Part shown: positions 2,799 to 29,090 of the stretch, one piece after another
Numbering within the stretch: the first letter of the stretch is position 1
How the letters are laid out: every line of letters starts with the position of its first letter
Origin: an uncultured Flavobacteriales bacterium
GTDB taxonomy: Bacteria > Bacteroidota > Bacteroidia > Flavobacteriales_G > Salibacteraceae
Assembly (NCBI GenBank): GCA_913020435.1
Contig: CAJVZZ010000001.1
Span: 108,105 to 172,104 of the forward strand
DNA: 64,000 nucleotides
Direction: 5' to 3'
Program-made: the position numbers and the translations under genes
The notes under the pieces: generated by a model
The model's input: only the letters and a program-made list of their open reading frames with translations
The model's database searches: none
What the model was told of the DNA's origin: nothing

Positions 2799-4832
2799 TT
2801 ACTGTTTTACAAATCGCTCTACTGAGCTATTGCCCTTTGCATCCAAAATACTAATGATATACATTCCGTTTTCAAAATTTGAAACTGGAACATTTAAATC
2901 ACTTTCATTAGGATTGATAGAATAAACTACGTTACCAATTATATCCATTATTACTAATTCTGAAATATCTCTAGGACCAGAAATATTTACAAAATCGTTA
3001 GAAGGGTTAGGATAAACCTTAAAGTTATTTGCATTAAAGTTATCGTCAATTCCTTCAGGAAAACAAGTTTCGCAAGATTCCCAGCAAACTGCAGGAAGTG
3101 TTGTGTCTCCAGCAAGACTTAGAATTCTGTTGATATTAGTCCCTGTTTGTTTGATACAACTTAGAGTTGAATCTAAGGTTTCCTGACCAGTCCAAGCGTC
3201 ATGTGCAAATTTATATTCAGTTTCTGATCCTGTAATAATAACAGTAAGTTCCCAAATATTGTCACCATCAACATCTGTCATGGCGCCACAAGAGCCACAC
3301 CAACCATTAAAGAGTCCGTTCACTTCTGGAGTTGTAAAAGATCCAGTAAACGTGTTCATGTCAACTTGGAAAGTTACACTAGATGTGTCTGGAGGTGTTA
3401 CAATAGAACCACCAGTACTCAAGTAAACATCATCCACATAATAAGTTTTTGCTGCAGCAGGATTGTTTTGGAAATCATAAAAAATAGTAACCTGATTGTA
3501 GGTTTTAGCGAAGTTTATAGTTGCTGTTCCTGCAGCTTGATTTGCAAAATCAAACGTCAATGTATCCCAACCATTAGCAATACTTGTAGTTGCCTCAGTT
3601 TCAACTGAAATTTGGGAGCTATCAGCATCTTCTACCTTAAGTCTTACTTTTATTCCAGCATCTGGAGAATACACGACAGCTTTAATGATAGTTGTTCCTG
3701 CCGCAAAAGGAATTGAATCAGCTAATCCTAAAGGAGTACTTAAAGTAGTTCCTTGCCAAGGCTGACCTGTTGGGCTTTTATCTGTTTTTATAACCAGGTT
3801 ACTTGCATTCATAGGGTCAGCGACTAACATTGAGCTAGTACCATTAAAATCGGTAACAGTATAATCTACATTAGCTGTATCATCCCAATTAATAGGAAGT
3901 TTTATTTGATCTTTAGTTACAGGAGGAGTGCTTCCACAACTGGCACAAGATTCCCAGCACACTGCTGATAAAATAGTATCACTTGAAACTGAAAGAATAC
4001 GATTAGTGTTGGCTCCTGTTGTGATTACACATGGCATTCCTGACATTAGTGATTCTTGAATAGTCCAACTATCAGCAGCGTATTTAAATTCATAATTTCC
4101 AGCAGCTAATTGTACTGTGACATCCCAAATTCCATCGTTATTAGCGTCAGTCATTGAGTTACAGTTTCCACACCATCCATTGAAAGTTCCATTTACCTCT
4201 GGAGTTGTGTAAGATGCCGTAACATCTTTCATATCAACTTGGAAAGTAACGTTATAGCTTGATGAAGCGGCAGGTTCAAAAAACACATTACCTAGGTAAT
4301 AAGTTTTGGCAGCTGCTGGGTTATTCATGAAATCATAGAAGATAGTGACTTTATCATAAATCTTTGCAAAGTTTAAAGCAGCTTTACCACTAGCTTGATT
4401 CGCAAAATTAAATTTTAGAGTGTCCCAACCCTTAACGGTAGTCATAGCTTCAGTTTCAGTTGAAATAGTTGCAGTATCCGAATTTTCTACTTTCAGTCTT
4501 ACCATTATTCCAGAATCTGGTGAATAAATTACAGCTTTAATAATTGTAGCACCGGCAGCAAATGGAATTAAGCTGTCTAGGCCAGTTGAAGTACTTAAAG
4601 TAGTCCCCTGCCATGGCTGTCCCGTTGGGCTTTTAGTTGTTTTTAAGACAAGGTTGGAAGCGTTCATTGGATCTGCCGATAGTGTTGAACTAGTACCATC
4701 AAAATCAGTTACTGTATAATCTACGTTAGCAGTATCGTTCCAAGTAATAGGAAGATTGATTTTACTTTTTTGCGCATTAGCAAAAGGTGCTATTAGCGCA
4801 GTGATTAAAATAATAAGTGCAATTTTTTTCAT
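2799..4832 (-). CDS. T9SS-exported protein with two tandem copies of a beta-sandwich plus CBM-like module (putative beta-glucan binding protein of the PUL)
   Basis: ORF 2799..4886, start moved to MKKIALIILITALIAPFANAQ (ATG 4830-4832, signal peptide). It holds two modules of about 285 aa each that align by eye. Each ends in a starch/glycan-binding-like segment (TFQVDM...TPEVNG.FNGWCG.C..MTD...W...YEFKY). The C-terminus is a T9SS sorting domain (KVYPNPSNDFVNISG...ISILDAKGNSSVERFVKQ). Confidence 0.6.
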   Translation of the reverse strand: MKKIALIILITALIAPFANAQKSKINLPITWNDTANVDYTVTDFDGTSSTLSADPMNASNLVLKTTKSPTGQPWQGTTLSTSTGLDSLIPFAAGATIIKAVIYSPDSGIMVRLKVENSDTATISTETEAMTTVKGWDTLKFNFANQASGKAALNFAKIYDKVTIFYDFMNNPAAAKTYYLGNVFFEPAASSSYNVTFQVDMKDVTASYTTPEVNGTFNGWCGNCNSMTDANNDGIWDVTVQLAAGNYEFKYAADSWTIQESLMSGMPCVITTGANTNRILSVSSDTILSAVCWESCASCGSTPPVTKDQIKLPINWDDTANVDYTVTDFNGTSSMLVADPMNASNLVIKTDKSPTGQPWQGTTLSTPLGLADSIPFAAGTTIIKAVVYSPDAGIKVRLKVEDADSSQISVETEATTSIANGWDTLTFDFANQAAGTATINFAKTYNQVTIFYDFQNNPAAAKTYYVDDVYLSTGGSIVTPPDTSSVTFQVDMNTFTGSFTTPEVNGLFNGWCGSCGAMTDVDGDNIWELTVIITGSETEYKFAHDAWTGQETLDSTLSCIKQTGTNINRILSLAGDTTLPAVCWESCETCFPEGIDDNFNANNFKVYPNPSNDFVNISGPRDISELVIMDIIGNVVYSINPNESDLNVPVSNFENGMYIISILDAKGNSSVERFVKQ

Positions 4833-4987
4833 ATCTATTTTTAGTTTAACATAATGTTGGGATAAAGATATAGTAATTTTTACCACAAGGTAATTTTACC
4901 TAAATTTTTTATTTGGAAAAACAGATTATTAATTAAGGTGATAATCAATAATACGAAAGGCGTTAAAAAAACTTCAGTTAAACTCTG

Positions 4988-6154
4988 CTATTTTTGAAAT
5001 ACTCTGACATAGTCAACATGCAGGTATTGAGGGAATGTAGTATTTGGATTTGGACTACCAGGCCATTTACCGCCTACAGCAACATTAAATATAAAAAAAT
5101 ATTTTTCCCGAAACTCATCAAATTGGCTGTCTTTGGTATCAATAGCATGAAACGACTGGTCATCTATATACCAAGTAATTCCGTTCATGTCCCATATTAT
5201 ACTAAAAACGTGAAAGTTATCGTACAATACGCCATTTGAAATTTTCTTATTACTACTGAATTCTGCATGGGTATTACTTGCATCAGCCCAATGCACGGTT
5301 CCATGAGTAACATTGTCACCTCTAACTGCAGTACTTTCGCCGCCAACCATTTCCATTATATCTATCTCACCACATTGTGGCCAACCAGTTGTAGGGAAAT
5401 TGTTACCGAGCAACCAGAGTGCTGGCCATATTCCTTGACCATATGGTGCAGCTGCACGAATATCAATTCTGCCGTATTTAAAACTTTGAAGTCCTTGAGA
5501 TGAAATTCGAGAAGAAGTGTAAGAGCTTGAATTAAAAATTTGCTTTTCAGCTGTTATGGTTAATACACCATTTTCGACTTTAGTATTTTCTTCTTTGTAA
5601 TACTGAAGTTCAGAATTTCCCCAACCATTATTTCCAGTTCCAATTTCATGTTTCCAATTGGTACCTAAAAGTGTTGTGCCTTCAAATTCGTCTTGCCAAA
5701 CCAATGTGTAGTTTGGATAAGAGAGTGGAGTAGAGTAACCAGCAGTAGGTGATTCGCCAATAACACGAGGTGGCACATTTGAAACGATAGCCACGTTTTC
5801 TATTTTTTCAATGTATTGATTATCCAAAACATGAGCACGAATAATGATAGAATATGAGCCCGCAGATTTGAATGTATAAGACGCTTCACCATTATTTGAT
5901 TGATCAATAATTTCATTGTCGTTTTCTGTGAACCTAATGGTATAGAAATTAGCGTTATTAGCATTAGCCTTTACACTAACAAAACCGAAGTTTGATGTAT
6001 CCTGAGTTACTGAAACAACTAGATTACTCGGTAAAGTTACAGCCTGATTTTCATCAGGCTCATCCTTTTTACAAGCATTAATCATTAGCGCTGTGCACAG
6101 AACTATAGCTACGAATTTTACATATTTATTGAAGCGTGGAATTTCTTTTTTCAT
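4988..6154 (-). CDS. GH16 family beta-1,3(4)-glucanase (laminarinase-type) lipoprotein
   Basis: GH16 ExDxxE catalytic motif GEIDIMEMVG plus WPALWLLG, a lipoprotein-type signal (ALMINACKKD) and an N-terminal Ig-like module. Confidence 0.85.
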   Translation of the reverse strand: MKKEIPRFNKYVKFVAIVLCTALMINACKKDEPDENQAVTLPSNLVVSVTQDTSNFGFVSVKANANNANFYTIRFTENDNEIIDQSNNGEASYTFKSAGSYSIIIRAHVLDNQYIEKIENVAIVSNVPPRVIGESPTAGYSTPLSYPNYTLVWQDEFEGTTLLGTNWKHEIGTGNNGWGNSELQYYKEENTKVENGVLTITAEKQIFNSSSYTSSRISSQGLQSFKYGRIDIRAAAPYGQGIWPALWLLGNNFPTTGWPQCGEIDIMEMVGGESTAVRGDNVTHGTVHWADASNTHAEFSSNKKISNGVLYDNFHVFSIIWDMNGITWYIDDQSFHAIDTKDSQFDEFREKYFFIFNVAVGGKWPGSPNPNTTFPQYLHVDYVRVFQK

Positions 6155-6196
6155 AAGAGGTAGATTAAATTCTATACAAATTAAGAAAAATCAACG

Positions 6197-7564
6197 CTAC
6201 TTTTGTTCAATATCGTCTATGTAGAATGTTCCAGCATTAGAGTCATTCCACGCAGGAATTAGAGTTATCCTATCATATAACCCTGGCGAAGTAGAAGAAA
6301 AATCTGCAGAAATTTCTACCCATTCATTGGCTTTAGTGATTGGAACAATCATTTCTTTAATAATTGTATTTTTACTTGCCTTGTCTTCCAATTTAATCAT
6401 AAAATCGCCAGTTTTTGGCGCATAAACTTTCAGTGAAATCGACTTTTTAGTAGTAAAGTCTAATTTGCCTTTGTGATTGATAAATAGTCCTGCCCATGTT
6501 TCAATCCCCTTTTTTGTTTCTAATACAAAATTACTACTATCAATTCCTGATTTAAAAGGATTAGTAATAATTGAATCAGTACTTTCTCCGAAAGGGGTTA
6601 CTATAGGTTTAATGATTTCAAAATCTATAGGAAGAGCAAAGGTGTTTGTATCTGCTGGCTCAACAGGTCCGCTACCATCACCTGTATCGACTATTCCGGC
6701 ATATCCTAAAGGAACTAAACGGAGATACCATAACAACGTAGCATTTGCATCAACATATACAAGTGAAAGTTCGTTCTCTGATAATTTTAAAATTTGATAG
6801 GTTCTTGTTCCTGCATAAAAACCAATAAAACTTTTACCAGTTGTACTCAAATATTTTATACCGTCTTCTTCAACGATATTCCAGTTTTCATTCAACTGAT
6901 CTTCTAGAGGTGCATTATAGTTATCTGCAGGTGACGGGTAAGAGCCTGGATAATCTCCAACAGCGAGATCATCGATAAATACGACTCCTTTGGTTGTCAT
7001 ATCAAAGCTAAAGCCTTCTAAGTAAAAGGTGTATCTGTCATTATACATATCAACTTCTCTTTGTTCAAACGCTTTAGCGAAATAATATTCTGGTACAAGA
7101 CCCGCTGCACTGGCTGGGTTTGGTCCAACACCAAAATGACCGTCCCGCGATGAATCTATAACCCATGTTTTAAAACCTAACCCAGAGATACCTCCAGTAA
7201 GGTTAACAATATCGGGGCTACCAAGAAGGGTCAAATCATCCTCTGCAATAGTGATTTCCTTATTCATAGTAACACTTCCGCCTTTTGTAAAAACAGTAAT
7301 TTTCACCAAATAGGATCCTTTTAGGGGATAAATTGCTCTAGCAGTTTTTCCTTTAGCTGCAGTTCCGTTTCCAAAATCCCATACGATAATAGATCCTGAT
7401 TTTGCCGCTGTAAATTGAATAATATTAGGGCTTTCCGCAGAAGGAGCATAAGTGAATTCTGCATCTTCAAATGCGGGAGCAACTCCTAATTCTGCCTTTT
7501 TTTTCTTACAGCTTACAGAAAATAATCCAATAAGTACAGCGATAGCTAAAACTTGAATTCTCAT
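6197..7564 (-). CDS. PKD-domain surface lipoprotein (candidate surface glycan-binding protein)
   Basis: Lipobox (LFSVSCKKK), a PKD-like segment (IVWDFGNGTAAKGKTARAIYPLKGSYLVKITVFTKGG) and a C-terminal beta-sandwich-like region. It sits directly downstream of susD, the usual SGBP slot. Confidence 0.6.
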   Translation of the reverse strand: MRIQVLAIAVLIGLFSVSCKKKKAELGVAPAFEDAEFTYAPSAESPNIIQFTAAKSGSIIVWDFGNGTAAKGKTARAIYPLKGSYLVKITVFTKGGSVTMNKEITIAEDDLTLLGSPDIVNLTGGISGLGFKTWVIDSSRDGHFGVGPNPASAAGLVPEYYFAKAFEQREVDMYNDRYTFYLEGFSFDMTTKGVVFIDDLAVGDYPGSYPSPADNYNAPLEDQLNENWNIVEEDGIKYLSTTGKSFIGFYAGTRTYQILKLSENELSLVYVDANATLLWYLRLVPLGYAGIVDTGDGSGPVEPADTNTFALPIDFEIIKPIVTPFGESTDSIITNPFKSGIDSSNFVLETKKGIETWAGLFINHKGKLDFTTKKSISLKVYAPKTGDFMIKLEDKASKNTIIKEMIVPITKANEWVEISADFSSTSPGLYDRITLIPAWNDSNAGTFYIDDIEQK

Positions 7565-7582
7565 AATAATTTTATCTTTTAA

Positions 7583-9052
7583 TTAATACCCAGAGTTTTG
7601 ACTCCACTTGCTTCCCGAAAGCACAATTTCTACTTGTGGGATTGGAAATAAGTTATGTTTTCCATCAATGAAACCTTCGATTTTATTCGCTGCCTCACCA
7701 GTCCTTACCAAGTCGAAAAATCGAAAACCTTCACCGCAGAGTTCAAGTCTTCTTTCATTATAAATGTCTTTAGTTAACTGTTCTCCTGAACTTGATAAAG
7801 CAGGAATTCCAGCTCTAATTCTCACTTCGTTAACATATTGCATTGCTTTGCCTGCACTTCCAATCTCACTATGAGCTTCAGCAGCCATTAATAAAACGTC
7901 AGCGTATCTTATAACACGATAGTTTACTGGACTCGTTAAGTCATTGTCTGGCAAACCAAATTCACCAATTCTTTTAATATATTTATTGTTATAATATCCT
8001 GTATGTCCACCTCCGCCTATTGCATAGGTAATTTCGGAGTTTGATTGTGCCGCAATAAAAGCGTCAATATCAAGTACGCTCGCATCCCTTCTTACATTAT
8101 CATTTGGACCAAATGCACCATATAAATCCTTAGTAGGTAGGTTGTAACTATTTCCATCGCCATATACAGGGCCAGAATATTGTCTTATACCTTGAAATCC
8201 TGGCGCAGCATTACCTTCTAAACAGATCAAACAACTATAGCTTCCACCTTCTAAACCCGAATATTGAACGTCAAAAACAGTTTCAGAGTTTCCTTCTGAA
8301 TTTTCAGCAAAAAGAGTACTGTAGTCCGCTGCTAATTCATATTGACCAGAGTTAATTACTTGATCTAAAACGTCAGCGCATTCAGCGAATTTACTCTGGT
8401 ATAAGTAAACTCTACCTAGAAGTGACTTTGCCGCTCCAGCCGTTGCTTTACCCTTTATAACTGCGATAGCAGGTAAAAGAGCTGAAGCATAAATAAGGTC
8501 CTTTTCAATTTGTTCATATACTAGAGCTTTAGGAGTTCTTTCCTTTTCTTTTAGTTCATCGATTCCAATTCGTTCATCAACTAATAGAGGAATATCGCCG
8601 AAGTATTTAACCAATTGAAAATAATAGTAAGCTCTTAGAAACCTAACCTCGGCAAGTAATTGTTTCTTACCAGTAAAAGAAATATTGTCCTTGTTTTGCA
8701 TTATGTAATTCGTTCTTGTAATTCCGGCATAATTCCACCTAAGAACGTTTCTTAGTTCAATATTTACACCGCCATGACTCATAGTTTCAATATCATGAAG
8801 GCCTTTTGAATCGACTACACTTTCACCACCAGCAATAGAGTTGTCTGAGGCGATTTCTCCAATCCAAAGATTCATAAATGAGCCTTGTAGAAGATCATAT
8901 GCTCCAACAAGGGCAGTGCGATAATGTTCCTCTTCAGTAAAGAAGTTTTCAGCATCTTGACTATAAAGTGGGTCTGTATCTAAATATTTCTTGCATCCTA
9001 CCGATACGATAGAGACTAAAATTACCAACGATAAAATCTTTAGTGTTTTCAT
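7583..9052 (-). CDS. susD: SusD/RagB family outer-membrane glycan-binding lipoprotein
   Basis: Lipobox (VSVGCKKYLDTDP) and typical SusD-like helical sequence. It lies 5 nt downstream of the SusC-like gene. Confidence 0.85.
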   Translation of the reverse strand: MKTLKILSLVILVSIVSVGCKKYLDTDPLYSQDAENFFTEEEHYRTALVGAYDLLQGSFMNLWIGEIASDNSIAGGESVVDSKGLHDIETMSHGGVNIELRNVLRWNYAGITRTNYIMQNKDNISFTGKKQLLAEVRFLRAYYYFQLVKYFGDIPLLVDERIGIDELKEKERTPKALVYEQIEKDLIYASALLPAIAVIKGKATAGAAKSLLGRVYLYQSKFAECADVLDQVINSGQYELAADYSTLFAENSEGNSETVFDVQYSGLEGGSYSCLICLEGNAAPGFQGIRQYSGPVYGDGNSYNLPTKDLYGAFGPNDNVRRDASVLDIDAFIAAQSNSEITYAIGGGGHTGYYNNKYIKRIGEFGLPDNDLTSPVNYRVIRYADVLLMAAEAHSEIGSAGKAMQYVNEVRIRAGIPALSSSGEQLTKDIYNERRLELCGEGFRFFDLVRTGEAANKIEGFIDGKHNLFPIPQVEIVLSGSKWSQNSGY

Positions 9053-9057
9053 TTCTA

Positions 9058-12000
9058 TTAAAATTTGAAATTAGTACCTAACATAAATGTTCTTGCTTGA
9101 GGATAAAAGCCATAATCAACTCCTGCTGATAAAGCTCCACCTGCTGAACCAAATTCCGGATCAAAACCTCTATAACCTGTTATTGTAAATACGTTGTTAA
9201 CAGATCCATAGACTCTAATTGATCTCATTTTTATTTTTTTGACAAATTTCGAGTTGAAGGTATAACCCACTTGAATATTTCTAAGTCTTACAAAGTTCCC
9301 TGATTCAACATAATAATCTGAAAATTCTGAATTTCTATTAGCTTCTGAGGTAACTCTAGGGACTTCGTCAGAAGTACCATCGCCAACCCAACGATCTATA
9401 ACATACGCTTGCTGATTTGCATAGGGTTGAAGCCTTTCATAATTTCGAATGATTTGTTGACCAATAGCAGAATATATGTTTGCAGAAGCGTCAAAGTTTT
9501 TATAGGTAGCATTTAAGCTTAAGCCAAACGTGAAATCTGGGATAGGTGATCCTAATTCTTTTTTATCAGTATCATCATTAAAGTTAATTACACCATCTCC
9601 ATTTTGATCGACATAAATCAAATCACCAGGTTTTGCATCTGGTTGAACTACTGCTGCATTGTCAATTTGTGCTTGATTCTGAAAAATACCATCTGTTTCT
9701 AGTCCGTGGAAGTACCCAATTGCAAATCCTTCTTGAAAACGAGTTGCTACGTTTCCTCCAACACCAAACTCGGCGCCAGGAATAAATTCAACACCATCGG
9801 GAACTTTAGTTACTTTATTACTGAGTAAGGTAGTGTTGAATTGTCCTCCTATTATAAAATCGTTCATTCTATCTGTAGTGTAACCAATTTCTAATTCAAT
9901 TCCTCTGTTAGAAACATCTCCAGCATTAATGAATGGAGGCTGACCGCCTGGACCGTATGAACCTAAAACAGCAGATACATCAGGTTGGAATAGTAAATCC
10001 TGAGTGTTTTTCATAAAGAAGTTTGTAGTAACATCCCACTTTTCCCATAGCTCTAAATCAAATCCAATATTCAACTGGCGAGTAGTTTCCCATCTTAAAT
10101 CTGGATTACCAGCTCTACCTATAGCCACTCCTTGGGTAATAATATCATCAAAGACGTAAACACCTTCTCCATTGAGATCAGCTCTATATGCAAAATTTTG
10201 AATTTGATCGTTTCCTGCAATACCAAAACTTGTTCTCATTTTTCCGAATGTAATAATGTTAGAACCAAAGAACGATTCATCTGAGAAAATCCAAGCACCA
10301 CTTACCGCAGGGAAGGTGCCGTATTTATTGTTGGGACCAAATTTTGTTGAACCATCCCTCCTTACTATAACAGAAACGAGATATCTATGATCATAACCGT
10401 ATTCTAATCTCAAGAAAGTTGATAGTAAACGTTCTTCATATTGAAAAGAACCCGTATTATTTAAAAGCCCCCCATCTGCTTGATTAGCAGAAATATCCGC
10501 AAAATCTAGAGAATTACCTGGAATATTAAATGCAGATCCGCTTAATTGATCTCCAGTTCTTTTGAAAATTGAAGCACCGGCTGTACCTTTAATTTGATGT
10601 TTCTTCTTAAATGTTCTGTCATAATTTAAAAAGGACTCTCCTGAGAGATCTACATAGGTAGTTTTTGCCTCATAAACACTTGCACCTCTTTCAATAAAAG
10701 TGCTGTCACCAATTTCGACCATCGTAGGATCTAAATTTGCATTAAGGGCCGTGTTCTGCGCTTTTCCAGGGCCATACCAAGTAAGTGGAGAGAAACTTTT
10801 TGCATCAACTAATGCGAAATTGTAATTGAATCTATTGGTAAACGTGAAGTGCTTATTGATTTTGAATGCAATTTCTTCTTTACCAACGAATTTGTTTACG
10901 ACAGCTTGATTGTATGTATTCTCCATTTGGGCAATTGGATTAATCACATCACTTACTTCTTCTAAATAGGAATAATTTCCGTTAGGAGTTTGAACAGGCT
11001 TTGTAGGCGAGGCATTGATAGTATTGTATAGCACAGAACCAATTCCGTTCTCAGGTAGAGTTTTTCTTTTTTCTTGGGTATATAGGAAAATGCTTGTAAG
11101 TTTAAACTTGTCATTGAGTTGAGTCACAAAATTTAAACGAGCATTGTAGCGTTCAAAATTTGATTTTTTACCTCCTATAATACCATCTTGGTTAAAGTAT
11201 GATCCCCCTACAGAAAAAGAGTTCTTTTTTGAGCCACCAGTGATAGAAATGTTGTGACTGTGCATCATGGCAGTTTGAAAAACTTCATCTTGCCAATTGG
11301 TCCCTCCACCAAGAGCGGTGTTATTAAAAGGAAGATCTTCACCTGCACTACCAAATATTTCGTTTTTGATTACGGCATATTCTTCAGCATTCAAAAGATT
11401 GAGTTTTCTTGCTGTTTGTTGAATTCCAGCATAAGAGTTAATTTCTATTTTGGTAGGGGAGTTGATTGTTCCTTTTTTGGTTTCGATAATTATTACACCA
11501 TTTGCTGCTCGAACTCCATATATACTAGCTGTTGCATCCTTTAAAATGTTTATTGACTCAATATCAGCTGGATTCAATGAATTTAATCCTTCCGAATCGT
11601 AAACAATACCGTCAACTAAAATTAGAGGATCGTTATCTCCAAAAGTAGAGAGTCCTCTGATTCTAATACTAGATGAGCCTCCCGGAGATCCTGAATTGGT
11701 ATTTATGTTAACTCCAGACACTTGACCTTGAAGAGCCTGGTCCATTCTAGGAATGTTTAATTTTTCCAGAGCGGCTCCTTCTACCTTAGCAGTAGCACCT
11801 GTAACTTCTTTTTTTGTTGTTGTGCCATATCCTACAACCACGACCTCTTCCAGAACACTGGCACTTGCTGCAAAATCAATATTAACTTCTAATCTCCCAG
11901 CAACTGGAACTTCTTGAGTCTCAAAACCAAGAAATGAAAACACAAGAACCGCTGTGTTGGCATCACTAACGGACATTTGAAAATTTCCATCTATATCTGT

Positions 12001-12186: not shown

Positions 12187-12402
12187 AGTTATAGTTATTT
12201 GTACCATTACTCTTGCAATGTTAATTTATTTTAACGGTTTTTCAAAAGAAAATAATCTTCAAATCATATAATAATGCTTTTTTTCAATATATATTCCTTG
12301 ATAAAAGGTTCAGAAAGCTCATGAATATCTTACTAATATTGAATTAATTTGCAAAAATATTTTAATATAAATTCTTTCTAACTTTTGAAAGATTCAGTTA
12401 TT

Positions 12403-13155: not shown

Positions 13156-13226
13156 TAGCTAGCGTTTTTTTAAAATCAGTTAAGTGTTTGGTATAGGTCG
13201 AGTTGTCAATTCAACCTAATTGTCTA

Positions 13227-13250
13227 TATTAGGATATCATTATCCTTATA
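13227..13250. promoter_or_regulatory. Imperfect palindrome, candidate operator upstream of zwf
   Basis: TATTAGGATA-TCAT-TATCCTTATA. The AGGATA (13231-13236) and TATCCT (13241-13246) half sites are perfect inverted repeats. The site lies 24 nt upstream of a -7-type promoter box. Confidence 0.3.
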
Positions 13251-13273
13251 GTAAAATAAACCATAAGTATTTT

Positions 13274-13281
13274 TATATTTG
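13274..13281 (+). promoter_or_regulatory. Bacteroidetes-type -7 promoter box (TAnnTTTG) for the zwf operon
   Basis: TATATTTG is an exact match to TAnnTTTG and ends 18 nt before the GTG start at 13300. Chance matches are common in AT-rich DNA. Confidence 0.3.
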
Positions 13282-15464: not shown

Positions 15465-15467
15465 ATT

Positions 15468-17857: not shown

Positions 17858-17870
17858 AAAGAATAAAATT

Positions 17871-18764: not shown

Positions 18765-20062
18765 TGGCACAATTAGCAAAATGGAAACATCGAATGCTTA
18801 ACCTTGGGTTAAACTTTTTGGTATGCTCTATTTTGTATTGTAGCTTATTTTCTTGCTCTGCTCCTGAAGTTAAAAATCTTGCAGCTTCTGAAATATTAGG
18901 TAATCTGAATTATCCAGCACTTTGCTATGGGGGTTATCGTTCAAATTCACGCAAAATTGAACCTTCTAAGGAGGAGTTAAAAGAAGATTTAATAATCCTT
19001 TCAGCACTCGGAATCAAAATTTTGAGAACTTATCATGCAGCTGAATTTGGGCAAGCAGAAAATCTTTTAAAAGTTATTTCAGAATTAAAAGAGGATAATC
19101 CAAATTTTGAAATGTATGTCATGCTTGGTGCCTGGATTGAGTGCAAGAATGCTTGGACCGATTTACCCGATCATACTTTAGAAAATTTTGAGAAGAATAA
19201 AAATGAGGTTAGAACTGCTATTCGACTCGCAACTTCATATCCCGACATTGTAAAAGTAATTGCTGTTGGTAACGAATCTATGGTGCATTGGGCAGCAAGT
19301 TACTTTGTTCATCCTGAGGTAGTATTACGTTGGGTTAACCTTGTGCAATCACTAAAAAGTAAAGGCAAATTATCTAAAGACTTGTGGGTTACTAGTTCCG
19401 ATAATTTTGCTTCTTGGGGTGGAGTAGATAGCTCTTACCACAATGCAAGTCTGTTAGAATTGATTGATGCCGTGGATTATGTTTCCATACACACTTATCC
19501 ATTTCATGACACTCATTATGATGGTGAATTTTGGATTCAACCAGACAGCAATGATGTATTAATTAAGAAATCTCAAATAGACTTTGGAATGGCTAAGGCA
19601 GTAGAACATGCTCAAAGTCAATTCAGTTCGGTTAAGAGTTTCATGCAGGAAAATGGAATTAAAAAACCAATTCACATTGGAGAAACTGGTTGGGCAACTA
19701 TTTCTACGGATAATTATGGCCATAATGGAACTAATGCAGCCGACGAATACAAGCAAAGAGCTTACTATTTGGGAATGAAAAACTGGATAGATTCCATAGG
19801 TGTAAGTTGCTTCTTTTTCGAAGCATTTGATGAGCCGTGGAAAGATGCCAGAAATACTAGCGGTTCAGAAAATCATTTTGGTTGGATTGATATTGAAGGT
19901 AAGGCCAAATGTATTTTGTGGGATCAAATTGATCAAGGAAAGCTAAACGGTCTAAAACGAAATAATATAGAAATTACTAAAAGCTACAATGGAAATTTAG
20001 ACTCAATGCTGCTTTATAGCTCAGCTCCTCCTATAAAAGTTTTAGAAAACGATACATTATGA
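18764..20062 (+). CDS. GH17 family beta-1,3-glucanase lipoprotein
   Basis: GH17-like acid/base (AVGNESMVHW) and nucleophile (IHIGETGWAT) regions, with a lipoprotein-like signal (SLFSCSAPE). Confidence 0.75.
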   Translation: MAQLAKWKHRMLNLGLNFLVCSILYCSLFSCSAPEVKNLAASEILGNLNYPALCYGGYRSNSRKIEPSKEELKEDLIILSALGIKILRTYHAAEFGQAENLLKVISELKEDNPNFEMYVMLGAWIECKNAWTDLPDHTLENFEKNKNEVRTAIRLATSYPDIVKVIAVGNESMVHWAASYFVHPEVVLRWVNLVQSLKSKGKLSKDLWVTSSDNFASWGGVDSSYHNASLLELIDAVDYVSIHTYPFHDTHYDGEFWIQPDSNDVLIKKSQIDFGMAKAVEHAQSQFSSVKSFMQENGIKKPIHIGETGWATISTDNYGHNGTNAADEYKQRAYYLGMKNWIDSIGVSCFFFEAFDEPWKDARNTSGSENHFGWIDIEGKAKCILWDQIDQGKLNGLKRNNIEITKSYNGNLDSMLLYSSAPPIKVLENDTL

Positions 20063-21618
20063 AACAAAAAAACAGAATTCTAGTTCAAATCGCATTAATT
20101 GTTGCCTTAGGTGGGCTTTTAATGGGTTTTGACGCCTCAGTAATATCAGGTGTGATTCAGTTTATTGAGGTGGAATTTGCGCTTACAAAACTAGAATTAG
20201 GCTGGGCCGTAGCTTCACTTACTCTTACTGCAACTTTAGCGATGATGGTCGCTGGACCTTTGAGTGATCGATTTGGAAGAAGGACTATACTGCGATATGC
20301 CGCCATTTTATACACTCTTTCGGCAATTGGGTCCGCTTTTGCACCTTCATTTATTTGGCTAGTTGTAGCTCGAATGGTTGGCGGTTTTGGTGTTGGAGCT
20401 TCGCTCATATTGGCCCCCATGTATATTGCTGAAATGGCACCGCCTAGAATTAGAGGTAGACTAGTATCATTTAACCAATTGAATATCGTAATTGGAATAT
20501 CCTTGGCATTTTTTACCAATTATCTTATTCTTCAATTTGCAAAATCAGATGCTAGTTGGGCTCAATCTCTTGGTTTTAATCAATACAATTGGCGTTGGAT
20601 GCTTGGCCTTGAAGCTTTACCTGCTATTCTCTATTACTTAGGTTTATTTTTCGTTCCAAAGAGTCCGCGTTGGTTAATTCTTAAAGGAGAATTTGAAAAA
20701 GCGAAAGAAGTAATGTCACGCTTTAATTCTGAAAAAGACACTGAAGAGGTTATTGCTCAAATGATTGAAAAGAACAATAATCCTGGAGTAAAAAAGGAAG
20801 GTAAAATTTCAGATTTATTTAAACCGGCAATGCGGCTTGTTCTTACTATTGGCATTGTGGTGGCAGTGCTCCAGCAAATAACGGGAATCAATTCCGTGTT
20901 TTTCTATGCTCCAATGATTTTTGAGCAATCAGGAATAGGAACAGATGCTTCTTTTATGCAGGCTATATTAGTTGGTATTGTAAACTTAGTTTTTACATTA
21001 TTGGCGATGTACTTTATTGACAGGCTGGGACGTAAACCCTTGTTAAGTGTTGGAGTTGCAGGAATTGCACTTTCTATGTTTTTATTGGCGTTCGAATTTA
21101 ATTCGGCAACCTACCAACTTACTCCAGAAAAAATGAATCAATTATCTTTAAAAATGGAAATTGGTGCATTAGGATCATTGAACAATATTACTTATGAATC
21201 TGAAAGTGAATTCAAAGTTGCGCTTATTGCTAATCTAGGTAAAGAAGAGTTTGAAGCAAATAAAGAGGTGTTATTGAAAACGGCAGTTTCCATGAATTCG
21301 ATGCTAATATTATTTGCGATTTTAGGATTTGTAGCCTCCTTTGCATTTTCAATAGGGCCTGTTATGTGGGTGCTATTTTCAGAATTATTTCCAAATTACA
21401 TACGAGGTATCGCTATTTCGTTTGTTGGTTTAATTAATTCTGGAATTAGCTTCGTTGTTCAGTGGGTTTTCCCTTGGGAATTAGAAGTTCTTGGAAGTGA
21501 TGTGACTTTTTTAATCTATGGAATATTTGCAGCCATCGGATTTGTGTTTATCATCAAGGTAATCCCTGAAACAAAAGGTAAGTCACTAGAAGAAATTGAA
21601 GCTCAACTGGTAAAATAG
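20059..21618 (+). CDS. MFS sugar-porter family transporter with an enlarged loop between TM9 and TM10
   Basis: Sugar-porter motifs (GRR, PKSPRWL, PETKG) and 12 predicted TM segments. An extra hydrophilic segment of about 68 aa is encoded at 21097-21300. The ATGA overlaps the GH17 stop. Confidence 0.85.
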   Translation: MKQKNRILVQIALIVALGGLLMGFDASVISGVIQFIEVEFALTKLELGWAVASLTLTATLAMMVAGPLSDRFGRRTILRYAAILYTLSAIGSAFAPSFIWLVVARMVGGFGVGASLILAPMYIAEMAPPRIRGRLVSFNQLNIVIGISLAFFTNYLILQFAKSDASWAQSLGFNQYNWRWMLGLEALPAILYYLGLFFVPKSPRWLILKGEFEKAKEVMSRFNSEKDTEEVIAQMIEKNNNPGVKKEGKISDLFKPAMRLVLTIGIVVAVLQQITGINSVFFYAPMIFEQSGIGTDASFMQAILVGIVNLVFTLLAMYFIDRLGRKPLLSVGVAGIALSMFLLAFEFNSATYQLTPEKMNQLSLKMEIGALGSLNNITYESESEFKVALIANLGKEEFEANKEVLLKTAVSMNSMLILFAILGFVASFAFSIGPVMWVLFSELFPNYIRGIAISFVGLINSGISFVVQWVFPWELEVLGSDVTFLIYGIFAAIGFVFIIKVIPETKGKSLEEIEAQLVK

Positions 21619-21624
21619 ATAATT

Positions 21625-22821
21625 ATGAAAGAAATAATCTTTGGGTCAATTCTTTGTCTTGCCATGGTCGGATGCAATACGAACCGAGCTATTGAGGCTG
21701 CAGGTCAAGCTGAATCTCTTTCCGAGAAAAGAATAGTGGTGCCCTTTGATAGTTCCAATTTTGAAAGTGAAACGCAAAATTTCACTACAATTATCCAAAC
21801 TACCGGAAGATACAAGATTTCCGTTTTTGGCTCTAAAGGTAGCGGTGAAGTTTGGATCGAAGATTACGTTGAAAATCAAGATCAACGAGAGTACAATATT
21901 ACTGGGAGCCTGAAAATAGCCCAAAATTCAACTGCAAGTATTGAAGGTTCGCCTCTTGCTTCTGGAGAGCACAGCATGCAAGTGCATAAATCAATTAATT
22001 TTCAAGTTGACAGTTTGGTGTTAGAATTAATCCAGAATAACCAAGATACAAAAGACACTTTAGTTCAAAACACTGAAGGGGAGAAATGGGAATTGGTATG
22101 GTCTGATGAATTTGAAAATGCGGGTCTCCCAGATAGTACAAAATGGAGCTATAATATTGGAAATTGGGGATGGGGAAATAATGAACTGCAGTATTATACT
22201 TCCGATAAATTAGAAAATGCTAAAATTGAAGATGGAAACCTTGTAATAACGGCAATCAAAGATCTTAAAGATTCAACATGGACTTCTGCAAGATTGACCA
22301 CACAGGGTAAGGTTGCATTTAAATATGGGAAAATAGAGTTTAGAGCAAAAGTTCCTGCAGTTCGTGGCACTTGGGCAGCTGGTTGGTTGCTTGGAGATGC
22401 ATATCGAGATGAAATCTCTTGGCCATATTGTGGTGAAATTGATGTTCTGGAGTGTGTCGGTTATGAAATAAATGATACTACAGAAAAAGGAATAAATCAT
22501 GCAACTTGTCACACTAGAGCTTATTACTTCAAGCAGAACAATCAAATTGGAAGTGAGATAGAGTTGGATAGTATGCACTCAAAATTTCATACTTATTCTG
22601 TAGAATGGTATCCAAATGAAATCAAAGGTTTTGTAGATGGAATTCATTATTACACGTATGATAAAAACGCAAATGATCAAGAATGGCCATTTCACCAGTC
22701 ACAGAATATTATTCTAAACTTAGCTATTGGTGGTGGTTGGGGAGGATTAAAAGGTGTTGATCAATCTATGATTAGCCAGCAGTACACGATTGATTACGTA
22801 AGAGTTTTTGAAAAAAGATAA
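21625..22821 (+). CDS. GH16 family beta-1,3(4)-glucanase (laminarinase-type) lipoprotein
   Basis: Catalytic motif GEIDVLECVG plus WAAGWLLG, a lipobox (LAMVGCNTN) and an N-terminal module of about 150 aa of unknown type. Confidence 0.85.
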   Translation: MKEIIFGSILCLAMVGCNTNRAIEAAGQAESLSEKRIVVPFDSSNFESETQNFTTIIQTTGRYKISVFGSKGSGEVWIEDYVENQDQREYNITGSLKIAQNSTASIEGSPLASGEHSMQVHKSINFQVDSLVLELIQNNQDTKDTLVQNTEGEKWELVWSDEFENAGLPDSTKWSYNIGNWGWGNNELQYYTSDKLENAKIEDGNLVITAIKDLKDSTWTSARLTTQGKVAFKYGKIEFRAKVPAVRGTWAAGWLLGDAYRDEISWPYCGEIDVLECVGYEINDTTEKGINHATCHTRAYYFKQNNQIGSEIELDSMHSKFHTYSVEWYPNEIKGFVDGIHYYTYDKNANDQEWPFHQSQNIILNLAIGGGWGGLKGVDQSMISQQYTIDYVRVFEKR

Positions 22822-22823
22822 GC

Positions 22824-24332
22824 TTGAACTTTAGATTATTACTCATATTTTTCGTATTTATTGCATGCAATTCAAAGCGCGAACAGCATCTAAGTGTTCG
22901 AGTTTTTCAGACGAGTGCTAGTGGTGACAAACTGACTGAGAAAAGTTTGTCTGAATCGCAAAAATCTCCGGAACATACAGTTCAAATAAATCCAAATAAA
23001 AAATTTCAAGTCATAACAGGTATAGGTGGAGCTTTTACTGAATCTTCAGCATCTATTCTAAATCAATTGAGCAAATCCAATAGGGTTAAAATAATGAAGG
23101 CCTATTTTTCAGATAGCGGGGCTAATTATTCCTTGACTAGAACTCACATAAATTCCTGCGATTTTTCTTTAGGCACCTACTCTTATGATTCCGTCGTAAA
23201 TGATACTCAACTGCAATATTTTGATATTTCACCAGATAAGAACGATCTTATTCCAATGATAAAAGAAGCCCAAGCTATTTCTAACGAGGGGTTTAAAATC
23301 ATTGCTTCTCCTTGGACTGCTCCACCGTGGATGAAGGATAATAATAGCTGGAAAGGAGGGAAGTTACTTCCTAAATATTATACAACTTGGGCAAATTACT
23401 TGGTGAAGTATATTGATGAATACAAAAAAGAAGGAATACCAATTTGGGCATTAACTATAGAAAACGAACCGCTTGGAAATGGGGAGAACTGGGAAAGCAT
23501 GCACTATACACCTCAAGAAATGGCCAGTTTTATAAAAAGTCATTTGGGTCCGACCTTAGACAAGAATAACCTAGAAACTGAATTGTTGGTTTATGATCAA
23601 AATAGAGGAGAAGATTTAAATGCGTGGTCTTCAATTTTACTCACTGATAGTATGTTGGAACCTTACATATATGGAACAGCAGTTCATTGGTATTCTAGCA
23701 CAGTGGATTGGTTTCCGCAGTCTCTGCAGCAAACGCATGCATACGCCCCTCAAAAACATATCATTCAAACAGAGGGCTGTATTGATGCAGAAATTCCTAA
23801 GTGGAAAGACGATGCGTGGTATTGGAAAAAAGAAGCGACTGATTGGGGTTGGGATTGGGCAATTGAAGAAGACAAACCAAATCACCCAAAATATGTTCCT
23901 ACCTATAGGTATGCCCGTGATATAATAGGTTGTATGAATAACTGGGTAGAAGGTTGGATAGATTGGAATATGGTTTTGGATAAGAAAGGGGGCCCCAATT
24001 GGGCAAATAATTGGTGTATTGCTCCAGTAATAGCCGATCCAGAAAAAGATGAAGTTTATTTTACGCCATTGTATTATGTAATGGCTCATTTTAGTAAGTA
24101 TTTTCGGCCCAATTCAAGGAGAATAGAATGTATTTCAACTTCAGATGGTCTGCTAGTTACAGCTGTTGAAAATACTACTGGAAGTATAGCTGTTGCTGTT
24201 TTAAATGAACAGAATGACCCACTTACTTTCAATTTAAAAATAGGGTCACAATCTCAGATAGTAGAAATTGAAGGTAAGGCATTGCAAACTATCATAGTTA
24301 ACGGAAAATCAATACTGAAAAAAGCAAATTAG
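22824..24332 (+). CDS. GH30 family glycosidase (beta-1,6-glucosidase-type) lipoprotein
   Basis: GH30-like acid/base TIENEPLG and nucleophile-region IIQTEGC, with a lipobox (FVFIACNSK). TTG start 2 nt after the GH16 stop. Confidence 0.8.
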   Translation: MNFRLLLIFFVFIACNSKREQHLSVRVFQTSASGDKLTEKSLSESQKSPEHTVQINPNKKFQVITGIGGAFTESSASILNQLSKSNRVKIMKAYFSDSGANYSLTRTHINSCDFSLGTYSYDSVVNDTQLQYFDISPDKNDLIPMIKEAQAISNEGFKIIASPWTAPPWMKDNNSWKGGKLLPKYYTTWANYLVKYIDEYKKEGIPIWALTIENEPLGNGENWESMHYTPQEMASFIKSHLGPTLDKNNLETELLVYDQNRGEDLNAWSSILLTDSMLEPYIYGTAVHWYSSTVDWFPQSLQQTHAYAPQKHIIQTEGCIDAEIPKWKDDAWYWKKEATDWGWDWAIEEDKPNHPKYVPTYRYARDIIGCMNNWVEGWIDWNMVLDKKGGPNWANNWCIAPVIADPEKDEVYFTPLYYVMAHFSKYFRPNSRRIECISTSDGLLVTAVENTTGSIAVAVLNEQNDPLTFNLKIGSQSQIVEIEGKALQTIIVNGKSILKKAN

Positions 24333-24333
24333 A

Positions 24334-27765: not shown

Positions 27766-27776
27766 TCAGAGTTATA

Positions 27777-29090
27777 ATGGCACTTTCTAAAAATTACAGA
27801 ATATCCTTTGCGCTCATAACTGTTCTATTCTTTTTTTTAGGATTTATTACTGTGTTGGTTGACTCGTTAATCCCACGATTACGAGAGCTTTTTGATTTAA
27901 GTTATTTTGAAGCTGGGACTGTGCAATTTGCTTTTTTCAGTGCTTATTTTGCCTTATCGATTCCGTCAAGTTATTTTTTGACAAAAATTGGATACAAGGG
28001 AGGAATTATTACTGGATTGCTCGTAATGGCTTTAGGATGTGCTTTGTTCTATCCTGCTGCAGAATATCGGTCATTTGGAATATTTATTTCTGGTTATTTT
28101 ATTCTAGCAGGAGGTATGACGTTATTGCAAGTAGCCATAAATCCTTTTGTAGCTGTTTTAGGAGATGAAAAATCTTCATCAAGTAGATTGACGTTAGCAC
28201 AAGCATTCAACTCATTGGGGACGGCCATAGCGCCTGCTGTTGGAGCTTTTTTTATTCTGTCTGATACCATTAAAACTAAAGCTCAAATAGAGGATTTAAC
28301 CCATTCTATGAAAGAATCATACTTGGCTGCAGAAGCTGCAGCGGTGCAACTTCCATTTGTAACAATTGCTGCTGTTATTGCTTTGGTGGCAGTTGTTTTT
28401 CTTTTTGCAAAACTTCCTAAGCTCATTGAGTCGAATGAAAGAACTTCTTATTGGGATTTATTACAGCATAAAAATTTATTGTATGGAGTTCTAGGTATCT
28501 TCTTTTATGTGGGAGCAGAAGTTGCAATTGGCAGTTATTTGGTCAACTACTTATTAGATATGGACCTAGTGCCCATAATAAAGAATAATGCATACATGAA
28601 ATCCATAGCTGAGGGCATATTGAATGCTGATTTGCTGCAAAAAGATCAAAAAGCTATAGTTGGAGTTTTCGTTACATTTTATTGGTCAGGAGCTATGATT
28701 GGCAGATTTGTAGGAGCTTACCTTACCAAAAGATATAGCCCTGGCAAAGTAATCGGAATATTCGCTTTCTGTGCGATCGTCTTGTCTCTTATTTCAATTT
28801 CAACGACTGGTTTAACAGCCATGTGGAGTGTAATTACAATAGGGTTATTCAATTCTATTATGTTCCCAACAATCTTCAGTCTAGCAATTGGAGGTTTGGG
28901 AGTGCTTAAACCTAAAGCATCTGGCTTACTGTGTATGGCAATTGTTGGAGGTGCGCTAGTCCCGCCAATGTTTGGCTTTTTAGCAGACACGGGTGGATTT
29001 AAAATTGCTCTGTTGCTGGTTGTCTTTTGCTATGCCTATATAGCCTTCTTCGGCTTTAGGAATTATAGAATGAAAAATTCAATACTCTAG
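27777..29090 (+). CDS. MFS transporter of the glucose/galactose (GluP/FucP-like) family
   Basis: 12-TM protein of 437 aa whose N-terminal pattern (FALITVLFFFLGFITVLVDSLIPRLRELF) is typical of GluP/FucP-type importers. Last gene of the operon. Confidence 0.75.
   Translation: MALSKNYRISFALITVLFFFLGFITVLVDSLIPRLRELFDLSYFEAGTVQFAFFSAYFALSIPSSYFLTKIGYKGGIITGLLVMALGCALFYPAAEYRSFGIFISGYFILAGGMTLLQVAINPFVAVLGDEKSSSSRLTLAQAFNSLGTAIAPAVGAFFILSDTIKTKAQIEDLTHSMKESYLAAEAAAVQLPFVTIAAVIALVAVVFLFAKLPKLIESNERTSYWDLLQHKNLLYGVLGIFFYVGAEVAIGSYLVNYLLDMDLVPIIKNNAYMKSIAEGILNADLLQKDQKAIVGVFVTFYWSGAMIGRFVGAYLTKRYSPGKVIGIFAFCAIVLSLISISTTGLTAMWSVITIGLFNSIMFPTIFSLAIGGLGVLKPKASGLLCMAIVGGALVPPMFGFLADTGGFKIALLLVVFCYAYIAFFGFRNYRMKNSIL

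Follow-up and report, generated by a model that had tools for sequence, protein, structure and literature searches.

GH149 in the laminarin PULs of Bacteroidota was described in 2018 (PMC5827456, PMC6246565), and the 'variant 1' laminarin PUL has been defined as a GH149-GH30_1-GH17(-GH16_3) locus (PMC10108472). The alternation of GH149 with GH3 has also been noted, and laminarin was described as the most abundant marine energy and nutrient source (PMC13188888). The models of laminarin turnover are based on few cultured Flavobacteriaceae. Here, we analyzed a locus within a 64,000-nucleotide stretch of DNA from an uncultured Flavobacteriales bacterium (the window), and we consider it quite likely that this locus is a laminarin (β-1,3/1,6-glucan) system of the GH149 variant 1 type, with an operon fused to Entner–Doudoroff (ED) genes and one AraR-like regulon. 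GH149, GH17, GH30, and a laminarinase-type GH16, the enzyme set of variant 1, are encoded in one locus. The initial annotation had read it as a laminarin-type PUL, and this reading is supported by GH149, GH17, GH30, two GH16 proteins, SusC/SusD, and the PKD protein. The replacement of GH3 by a phosphorylase, which had been singled out as unusual, is the already known GH149 variant 1 layout (PMC5827456, PMC6246565, PMC10108472, PMC13188888) and is no surprise to a specialist. The new parts appear to be the full ED pathway in the same operon and a single AraR-like repressor that apparently controls the whole locus.

Gene content and packing of the locus

The features are listed in Table 1. In the minus arm, domain search identified an adjacent SusC/SusD pair with a GH16 gene nearby, the hallmark of a PUL. 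The best PDB match of this GH16 is an endo-1,3-β-glucanase; its lipobox reads ...NAC/KKDE, and the protein is likely exposed at the cell surface. PDB 7KV5, matched by the PKD/CBM lipoprotein, is a PKD domain protein from a Bacteroides β-glucan binding-protein study (PMC7974029). The C terminus of this lipoprotein also matches PDB 8QX6, whose deposition title reads only 'PKD domain-containing protein', and residues 329–487 of the T9SS protein match the same entry weakly. Homologues of the T9SS protein adjoin ED or GH16 genes in other lineages. Its ORF reaches GTG 4886 (2799–4886), but the start is most likely ATG 4832 because a signal peptide (MKKIALIIL...) is found after M19. The longest susC ORF begins at 12207 (9058–12207); the initially annotated start at 12186 is preferred from the alignment with relatives, since ATG 12207 falls within a conserved operator-like box and is missing in L088, the closest relative in this comparison.

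Table 1 Features of the locus, with window positions and supporting matches
Feature	Position	Strand	Evidence
T9SS-secreted multi-CBM protein	2799..4832	-	Por_Secre_tail; weak CBM48/X25/CBM35-like matches
Operator-like box 3, GATATAGTAATTTTTACCACAAG	4867..4889		19.3 bits, relatives-only PWM; 35 nt 5' of ATG 4832
GH16 laminarinase-type endo-β-1,3-glucanase, lipoprotein	4988..6154	-	Pfam GH16 8e-24; PDB 4CRQ 4e-70
PKD/CBM surface glycan-binding lipoprotein	6197..7564	-	PKD + CBM_4_9 domains; PDB 7KV5 9e-37
SusD-like protein	7583..9052	-	SusD_RagB 2e-33; SusD-like_3
SusC-like TonB-dependent transporter	9058..12186	-	CarboxypepD_reg, Plug, β-barrel domains
Operator-like box 2, susC-sense strand GTAATGGTACAAATAACTATAAC	12188..12210		19.2 bits, relatives-only PWM; directly 5' of susC ATG
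AraR-like NrtR-family regulator (Nudix-like ligand domain + winged HTH)	12403..13155	+	NrtR_WHD 2e-22, AraR_C, NUDIX
Operator-like box 1, CTTATAGTAAAATAAACCATAAG	13245..13267		26.5 bits, relatives-only PWM; overlaps plus-operon promoter
TATATTTG, promoter -7 element match	13274..13281	+	invariant in alignment A2
zwf, glucose-6-phosphate dehydrogenase	13300..14772	+	TIGR00871: 534.8 bits (cutoff 400.6)
pgl, 6-phosphogluconolactonase	14772..15464	+	TIGR01198: 172.8 bits (cutoff 124.45)
edd, 6-phosphogluconate dehydratase	15468..17270	+	TIGR01196: 900.2 bits (cutoff 708.25)
eda, KDPG aldolase	17270..17857	+	TIGR01182: 190.1 bits (cutoff 156.05)
BadF/ASKHA-type sugar kinase, 297 aa	17871..18764	+	PDB 1ZXO 1e-55; 8OQK/8OW7 ~1e-48
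GH17 endo-β-1,3-glucanase (FbGH17A-like), lipoprotein	18764..20062	+	PDB 6FCG 1.4e-145; lipobox LFSC
MFS1, sugar-porter family	20059..21618	+	Sugar_tr 2e-104
Second GH16, laminarinase-type, lipoprotein	21625..22821	+	Pfam GH16 3e-18; PDB 3ILN laminarinase 8e-65
GH30 (glucosylceramidase-like, GH30_1-type), candidate β-1,6-glucosidase, lipoprotein	22824..24332	+	Glyco_hydro_30 4e-79 + GH30C; PDB matches
GH149 β-1,3-(oligo)glucan phosphorylase, predicted cytoplasmic, 1143 aa	24334..27765	+	NF058639 1594.1 bits; PDB 6HQ6 E=0
MFS2, GluP/FucP-type glucose/galactose importer	27777..29090	+	TIGR01272 gluP 276.3 bits (cutoff 202.55)

The plus block (13300–29090) consists of 11 genes: zwf, pgl, edd, eda, the 297-aa kinase, GH17, MFS, GH16, GH30, GH149, and MFS. 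Its ten junctions, calculated from the ORF coordinates, are -1, +3, -1, +13, -1, -4, +6, +2, +1, and +11 nt, all of them 13 nt or less. These values and the gene calls of the initial annotation were all reproduced; the match at ten junctions requires ATG 14772 as the pgl start, which is also the choice in gene calls from other assemblies. Its view of the block as almost certainly one transcript is supported by this tight packing, which is kept in relatives: the junctions range from -35 to +34 nt in approximate gene models of L002, L087, L088, L093, L094, L097, L119, and L165, whose proteins are only ~45–70% identical to those of the window. The 11 genes are thus packed like a single transcript, and promoters inside the coding sequence may be possible. 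A weak terminator-like hairpin is present at 29167–29184, 3' of MFS2. A scan for σ70 promoters gave 57 promoter-like sites (64 expected from shuffles) and that for intrinsic terminators gave 19 sites (11.8 expected, sd 3.8; a weak excess), and both were set aside because Bacteroidota promoters are outside the model. No rRNA is present within the 64-kb window.

The GH16, GH17, and GH30 assignments of the initial annotation hold in profile or PDB searches. The Pfam GH17 score (21.5 bits) is below the threshold of 28.2, and the assignment is settled by the FbGH17A match instead. GH30 falls below the cutoff of the NCBIfam endo-1,6-β-glucanase model. The CAZy subfamilies GH16_3 and GH30_1 were deduced via the nearest solved structures, not dbCAN. 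The 1143-aa protein, annotated initially as a phosphorylase candidate, can be identified as GH149, because it matches the NCBIfam equivalog over its full length and above the cutoff of 1150 bits, resembles 6HQ6, and keeps the active-site residues. In the alignment to Pro_7066, W640-N641-D642, R459-D460, and H945 correspond to W651-N652-D653 (WND loop), R470-D471 (RD motif), and H959 (phosphate-site His), respectively (PMC6771811). Among solved GH149 proteins, Pro_7066 is the closest, and it breaks laminaritriose down to glucose (PMC6484121). No signal peptide was found in the window protein, and a cytoplasmic β-1,3-glucan phosphorylase is supported. The reported lack of GH3 was checked as a possible refutation, and it is borne out at the scale of the window, not of the genome: profile search of the ORFs found no GH3 domain in the 64 kb. 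Only the T9SS protein, SusC, Edd, GH149, and an ORF of 772 aa (37693–40011) reach 600 aa in the window; the last was considered as an overlooked GH3 and rejected since, like the others, it has no such domain.

The products of zwf, pgl, edd, and eda each exceed the curated cutoff, giving a complete ED set. The first five genes of the operon are these ED genes and the kinase, shared with the glycan enzymes, and this heading of the operon by central-carbon genes, already pointed out in the initial annotation, is the most distinctive feature of the locus. The kinase is predicted to be a glucokinase, and in many lineages it is found together with ED operons. Its closest solved relatives are GlcNAc/MurNAc kinases (8OQK/8OW7 are N-acetylglucosamine kinases), which counts against this role. 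The two MFS proteins had been proposed to be oligosaccharide importers. This is plausible for MFS1 as a candidate importer of laminari-oligosaccharides, and in other lineages its homologues adjoin GH149 or GH94-type phosphorylases, whereas MFS2 is a GluP-type glucose importer. Sugar-porter MFS proteins are typically monosaccharide carriers, which counts against oligosaccharide import by MFS1. No phosphoglucomutase could be assigned within the locus using the curated PGM models. The neighboring PGM/PMM-family protein (29294–30700) was rejected as the missing glucose-1-phosphate mutase: it scores below all curated cutoffs, best as GlmM-like, and its gene is not adjacent in L002 or any other GH149 locus. 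It is probably GlmM and therefore probably outside the laminarin system.

The regulator and operator-like boxes

The regulator matches BtAraR (PDB 5BS6) at 6e-51. It has the composition of the NrtR/AraR family, a degenerate Nudix-like domain and a C-terminal wHTH; its Nudix box (RVLNELTN versus REUxEExG) retains one of the three catalytic Glu residues. This AraR-like protein is the sole regulator among the window ORFs scanned, and no BguR/LuxR-type regulator, with a GerE/LuxR domain or Y_Y_Y sensor, was found among them. The AraR-type identity of the regulator and the operator was beyond what the initial annotation could see.

A conserved 23-bp palindrome, CTTAtnGTA-N5-TACnnTAAG, is present upstream of zwf, susC, and the T9SS gene. 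When the window was searched with a PWM built from relatives alone (nine sites chosen from alignments), the top three matches in 64 kb were exactly those upstream of the three genes, and the chance of any match of 19 or higher in shuffled 64 kb was P = 0.016. The boxes are conserved islands inside otherwise divergent intergenic regions, as seen for box 2 in alignment A1, and the core columns of box 1 are invariant in alignment A2. In many Bacteroidota loci, the box is located 56–85 nt 5' of zwf. Computationally, the motif is palindromic, operator-like, and conserved across genomes at the target promoters, and in the pairing that we infer, the AraR-like repressor probably binds it at the zwf, susC, and T9SS promoters. 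TATATTTG matches the Bacteroidota -7 promoter element (consensus TAnnTTTG). Another perfect palindrome, AGGATAtcatTATCCT (13231–13246), is unique in the window; since it is missing in the closest relatives, the adjacent conserved box was preferred as the operator.

The three boxes suggest one regulon with three transcription units, and the sequence supports co-regulation of both arms. An arrangement of two abutting independent units seems unlikely to us, i.e., a glucose module (regulator, zwf-pgl-edd-eda, and kinase) and a laminarin operon from GH17 to MFS2 with an internal promoter, the susC arm being under separate control. Such modularity agrees with other lineages, where the set of regulator, box, ED genes, and kinase is found apart from laminarin genes, accompanied by a T9SS amylase in L090–L092 and by an MFS plus a GH94-type phosphorylase in L096–L107; hence, the role of the regulator may be to control glucose or ED metabolism in general and not to sense laminarin. 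BguR/LuxR-type regulators are also typical of laminarin PULs (10.64898/2026.01.10.698779). However, the kinase and GH17 genes share 1 nt at their junction in the window and are about -35 to +16 nt apart across seven relatives, leaving no room for an intergenic promoter, and the boxes before susC and the T9SS gene tie the capture arm to the same motif. We prefer the single regulon.

Proposed pathway and distribution

Here, we propose a pathway for laminarin. Its fragments would be captured and imported by the surface GH16, the PKD/CBM protein, the T9SS CBM protein, and SusC/SusD, and the periplasmic lipoproteins GH30, GH17, and the second GH16 would debranch and shorten them. Glucose would be taken up via MFS2, and laminaribiose or short oligosaccharides probably enter via MFS1. 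In the cytoplasm, GH149 would convert the oligosaccharides to glucose-1-phosphate and glucose by phosphorolysis, the BadF-type kinase would phosphorylate glucose, and glucose-6-phosphate would be converted to pyruvate and glyceraldehyde-3-phosphate through zwf, pgl, edd, and eda. The Nudix/wHTH repressor encoded between the arms would respond to a cytoplasmic sugar signal. The energy conservation by phosphorolysis suggested in the initial annotation is a real gain, but a small one for an aerobe. This scheme starts from the demonstrated family identities, catalytic residues, packing, layout, and box conservation, and adds by inference the localizations, transporter substrates, kinase specificity, regulator–box pairing, effector, and flux.

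Another β-glucan, such as fungal or yeast β-1,3/1,6-glucan, a curdlan-like bacterial glucan, or mixed-linkage glucan, is a slightly less likely candidate than the two-unit arrangement. Several β-glucans are substrates of GH16, GH17, and GH30, and the solved relative of the PKD protein comes from a study on gut Bacteroides and β-glucan (PMC7974029). Nevertheless, GH149, FbGH17A-like GH17, GH30, and laminarinase-type GH16 degrade laminarin in Formosa and are expressed in diatom blooms (PMC6246565, PMC10108472), and the organism is found in metagenomes of the open ocean, where laminarin is the dominant β-glucan (PMC13188888). A mainly synthetic GH149, which would use glucose-1-phosphate to form cytoplasmic β-1,3-oligosaccharides for storage or as an osmolyte, is very improbable even though GH149 can run in both directions in vitro (PMC5827456), because its gene is surrounded, within a single operon, by genes for importers, degradative enzymes, and a catabolic pathway and no glucan synthase or storage genes were found nearby.

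The layout with ED genes, kinase, and laminarin genes recurs across diverged marine lineages, at least six of them, but just 1 of the 80 GH149 loci from other species shows it. The fused layout makes up most branches of one clade in the NJ tree of edd. The closest species-representative GH149 loci (54–60% identity) are from Flavobacteriales MAGs, and the organism is present in open-ocean metagenomes; we assign the locus to a marine Flavobacteriales population that is uncultured and widespread. A full-text search of a limited set of papers found no description of a laminarin/ED gene fusion in Flavobacteria. We tentatively suggest, with the balance tilting slightly against it, that a family-level clade of abundant uncultured oceanic Flavobacteriales has a 'polymer-to-pyruvate' laminarin regulon, in which everything from capture to the full ED pathway is co-transcribed or co-regulated and carbon flows via ED, not EMP. 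Cytoplasmic AraR-type sensing of an intracellular sugar or sugar phosphate would replace periplasmic BguR/HTCS-type sensing, and the same core would serve other glucan modules (GH94-type phosphorylase; α-amylase) in sister lineages.

The locus suggests that laminarin use is wired differently in this uncultured and widely distributed lineage, with cytoplasmic AraR-like sensing in place of periplasmic sensing, and the hard link to the ED pathway would alter the ATP/NADPH yield expected per glucose. The 23-bp operator may be used for regulon prediction in metagenomes, and MFS1 is a concrete target as a candidate laminaribiose/oligosaccharide importer.

Comparison with known systems

The window locus shares SusC/SusD, a PKD binding protein, GH16, FbGH17A-like GH17, GH30, GH149, MFS, and the absence of GH3 from the locus with the variant 1 PULs of Formosa sp. 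Hel1_33_131, Polaribacter, Aurantivirga, and Cd. Prosiliicoccus (PMC6246565, PMC10108472). Its gene order differs from GH16-GH149-GH17-GH30, which is common in 80 species, and no MFS-GH17 fusion was seen in this locus. Unlike variant 1, the operon is headed by five ED and kinase genes, has an extra, second MFS of GluP type, and is accompanied by an AraR-like regulator instead of the BguR/LuxR type; a membrane-spanning regulator of the latter type near susC/susD is common in variant 1, not strictly defining. The window GH149 is homologous over its full length (1170 bits) to Pro_7066 (PDB 6HQ6; PMC5827456, PMC6771811), with the WND, RD, and His residues shared and no signal peptide in either.

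The regulator resembles the BtAraR/XylR branch of the NrtR family in Bacteroidota (PMC4666351) in the degenerate Nudix-like domain with wHTH and in the GT-N7-AC palindromic operator at a sugar-catabolic operon and SusC/SusD promoters; the crystallized BtAraR operator, AAAGTGTTACTTTTACAC, has the same GT-N7-AC geometry as the box core (PMC4666351). In contrast to BtAraR/XylR, the regulator is linked to glucose/ED and β-glucan genes, not to arabinose or xylose, and its operator binding is predicted. The alginate PULs of Flavobacteriia with kdgK/kdgA likewise carry cytoplasmic steps to KDPG aldolase (PMC4069401). In those PULs, the entry is limited to the lower, non-oxidative part (KDG kinase and aldolase), whereas the window encodes the complete oxidative ED pathway from glucose-6-phosphate.

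Gene map and glycan-degrading enzymes

The ORF listing reproduced the gene map of the initial annotation (Table). The junctions in the plus-strand block were exactly −1, +3, −1, +13, −1, −4, +6, +2, +1, and +11 nt as described there, given the pgl start at ATG 14772, which was the choice of the gene callers in six other assemblies. The GC content is even throughout the locus (0.34–0.38), and thus there is no sign of recent foreign insertion. The ATG of the longest susC ORF (12205–12207) falls within a conserved operator-like box, and the closest relative has ATA there; therefore, automatic annotation probably over-extends SusC by seven codons.

Table. Features of the locus and of the rest of the window (window coordinates)
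Feature	Position	Strand	Evidence or remark
T9SS-tailed CBM protein	2799–4886	minus	Pfam + NCBIfam
Box 3	4867–4889		35 nt before likely T9SS-gene ATG; 19.3 bits
GH16a	4988–6154	minus	Pfam + NCBIfam
PKD/CBM lipoprotein	6197–7564	minus	Pfam + NCBIfam
SusD	7583–9052	minus	Pfam + NCBIfam
SusC (longest ORF)	9058–12207	minus	Pfam + NCBIfam; susC ATG at 12186
Box 2	12188–12210		directly before susC ATG; 19.2 bits
Nudix + winged-helix regulator	12403–13155		between minus arm and eleven plus-strand genes
Box 1	13245–13267		33 nt before zwf; 26.5 bits
BadF/ASKHA kinase	17871–18764	plus	297 aa
MFS1	20059–21618	plus
GH16b	21625–22821	plus
MFS2	27777–29090	plus
46-aa ORF	29079–29219	minus	DUF6500 match; overlaps MFS2 3′ end; annotated in two of the six assemblies carrying this sequence
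Hairpin	29167–29184		weak, terminator-like
tRNA gene	36707–36780	plus	single; only Rfam match within the window
161-aa protein and 772-aa ORF	37205–40011	plus
445-aa ORF	46345–47682	minus	no Pfam match; first in minus-strand run
Secreted-protein run	54933–59837	minus	unrelated to the PUL

The GH16, GH17, and GH30 calls hold. The closest solved structures of both GH16 proteins are laminarinases (4CRQ at 4e-70 and 3ILN at 8e-65), and the GH30 protein is of the glucosylceramidase-like type. GH17 was sub-threshold in Pfam alone, yet it matched FbGH17A of Formosa (6FCG) at 1e-145. The PKD protein matched the PKD domain protein 7KV5 (9e-37), a structure from a study of Bacteroides beta-glucan-binding proteins (PMC7974029). 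Lipoprotein signals were found at the N-termini of GH16a, the PKD protein, SusD, GH17, GH16b, and GH30.

Elsewhere in the window, the 161-aa protein carries a T9SS sorting tail and is followed 2 nt later by the 772-aa ORF, whose start varies by assembly (772 versus 763 aa). This ORF has no Pfam match, and its NCBIfam similarity to the N-terminal part of "mosaic adhesive trimer" fibre proteins is weak and below threshold. The 445-aa ORF is followed by a Na+/H+ antiporter, an OmpL-like porin (BBP2), and MgsA. The secreted-protein run comprises a T9SS-tailed esterase (BD-FAE/COesterase), an FGE-sulfatase (SUMF1-like) protein, and a T9SS-tailed YHYH protein. No rRNA was detected in the window with Rfam.

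GH149 phosphorylase, central-carbon genes, and transporters

The 1143-aa protein has no Pfam match, but it scored 1594 bits with the NCBIfam equivalog model for GH149, whose cutoff is 1150, and aligns over its full length with Pro_7066, a GH149 phosphorylase of solved structure (6HQ6, E = 0). The active site of Pro_7066 is defined by a WND loop with the catalytic Asp, an RD motif, and a phosphate-site His (PMC6771811), and all these residues are kept here (W640-N641-D642, R459-D460, and H945). The N-terminus (MEELNPEIVGEY...) is without a signal peptide, which suggests a cytoplasmic enzyme. The cytoplasmic phosphorylase candidate of the initial annotation is a member of GH149. By phosphorolysis, one ATP is spared for each glucosyl unit, which doubles the substrate-level yield of the Entner–Doudoroff (ED) pathway for those units; the gain in ATP is small for an aerobe.

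The zwf, pgl, edd, and eda products each scored above their curated NCBIfam cutoffs. The kinase falls within the BadF/ASKHA sugar kinases of Bacteroidota (1ZXO at 1e-55) and matched the N-acetylglucosamine kinases 8OQK and 8OW7 at ~1e-48; its predicted specificity is drawn from the gene context. MFS2 exceeds the NCBIfam gluP glucose/galactose cutoff, and MFS1 is a member of the sugar-porter family. MFS1-type porters are repeatedly paired with cytoplasmic beta-glucan phosphorylases across loci, and this pairing makes the strongest case so far that MFS1 may import the substrate of the phosphorylase. No phosphoglucomutase was assignable in the locus; the convergent neighbour (29294–30700) was rejected as a confident candidate, as it fell under all curated cutoffs, scored best as GlmM-like, and its adjacency is not conserved.

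AraR-like regulator and operator-like boxes

BtAraR (5BS6, 6e-51), a repressor that responds to L-arabinose and belongs to the Bacteroidota branch of the NrtR family (PMC4666351), is the nearest match of the regulator, whose Nudix box (RVLNELTN) is degenerate as in AraR. When the upstream regions of susC and zwf from the window and its relatives were aligned, the sole conserved islands were a 23-bp palindrome (CTTAtnGTA-N5-TACnnTAAG) and, before zwf, an adjoining TAnnTTTG element. The geometry of the box core (GT-N7-AC) is identical to that of the crystallised BtAraR operator. With a weight matrix built from nine sites of the relatives only, boxes 1–3 were the three best scores in the window, and only 1.6% of the shuffled windows contained any match of at least 19 bits. 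Many other Bacteroidota loci likewise have this box ahead of zwf, and some have it ahead of the regulator gene. One AraR-like repressor may govern three transcription units, which would support the bipartite view of the initial annotation and bring in the T9SS protein.

Fused and known loci in other Bacteroidota

Among 80 GH149 loci from different species, the usual order was GH16-GH149-GH17-GH30; the order ED-kinase-GH17-MFS-GH16-GH30-GH149-MFS was shared by a single MAG (L002). When metagenome contigs were scanned with Edd, the full bipartite layout was recovered in L087/L088 (Edd 95% identical), L093 (a 2.24 Mb contig), L097, and L119, with protein identities to the window mostly of 45–73%; its plus-strand part is also present on the shorter contigs L094 and L165. 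Junctions in these relatives range from −35 to +34 nt by approximate gene models. In a rough NJ tree of Edd, the fused-layout loci fall in one clade, with the layout on most of its branches and one nested, rearranged lineage (L090–L092). Identical copies of the GH149 protein are encoded on at least 23 contigs of marine assemblies, Tara Oceans samples among them, indicating a widespread population.

The partners of the ED genes vary in sister lineages. In the sister clade L096–L102 and L107, genes for an MFS1 homologue, a GH94-superfamily phosphorylase, and a T9SS protein lie opposite the same regulator and ED operon. In L099 (898–7607; also L096, L098, L102, and L107), the MFS1 homologue (~50% identity), 917-aa phosphorylase, and T9SS-tailed protein are divergent from zwf-pgl-edd-eda, and the AraR-like regulator lies downstream of eda. 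Here ED genes, a porter, and a beta-glucan phosphorylase are combined in a second design. In L090 (2841–13646; also L091, L092, and L154), the ED operon precedes a 930-aa T9SS-tailed alpha-amylase and then the AraR-like regulator, GAPDH, a BadF-type kinase, and a HAD hydrolase, with operator-like boxes ahead of zwf and the regulator gene; here, the ED core seems to be linked to alpha-glucan use. L156 (5324–17500), in which zwf-pgl-edd-eda precede same-strand homologues of SusC (61%), SusD (68%), PKD (41%), and GH16 (47%), is yet another way of coupling ED to a beta-glucan capture module. Given these varied partners, the regulator together with the ED genes and the kinase seems to form a core of glucose catabolism joined to different glucan-harvesting modules.

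ORF domain searches found no GH3 in the 64 kb window, and "phosphorylase in place of GH3" is correct as annotation, but it is a known PUL variant rather than the unusual feature initially proposed. Bacteroidota GH149 genes were placed in PULs with GH16, GH17, and GH30 at the founding of the family (PMC5827456), and Formosa laminarin PULs include them (PMC6246565). GH149-GH30_1-GH17(-GH16_3) loci constitute the laminarin PUL termed "variant 1", whose expression is high in North Sea blooms (PMC10108472), and GH3 replaces GH149 in some clusters (PMC13188888). Within the literature covered, full-text searches yielded no description of an ED–laminarin PUL fusion. The laminarin PUL itself is known; what sets this locus apart is the ED fusion, together with the AraR-type regulator and three putative operators of that regulator.
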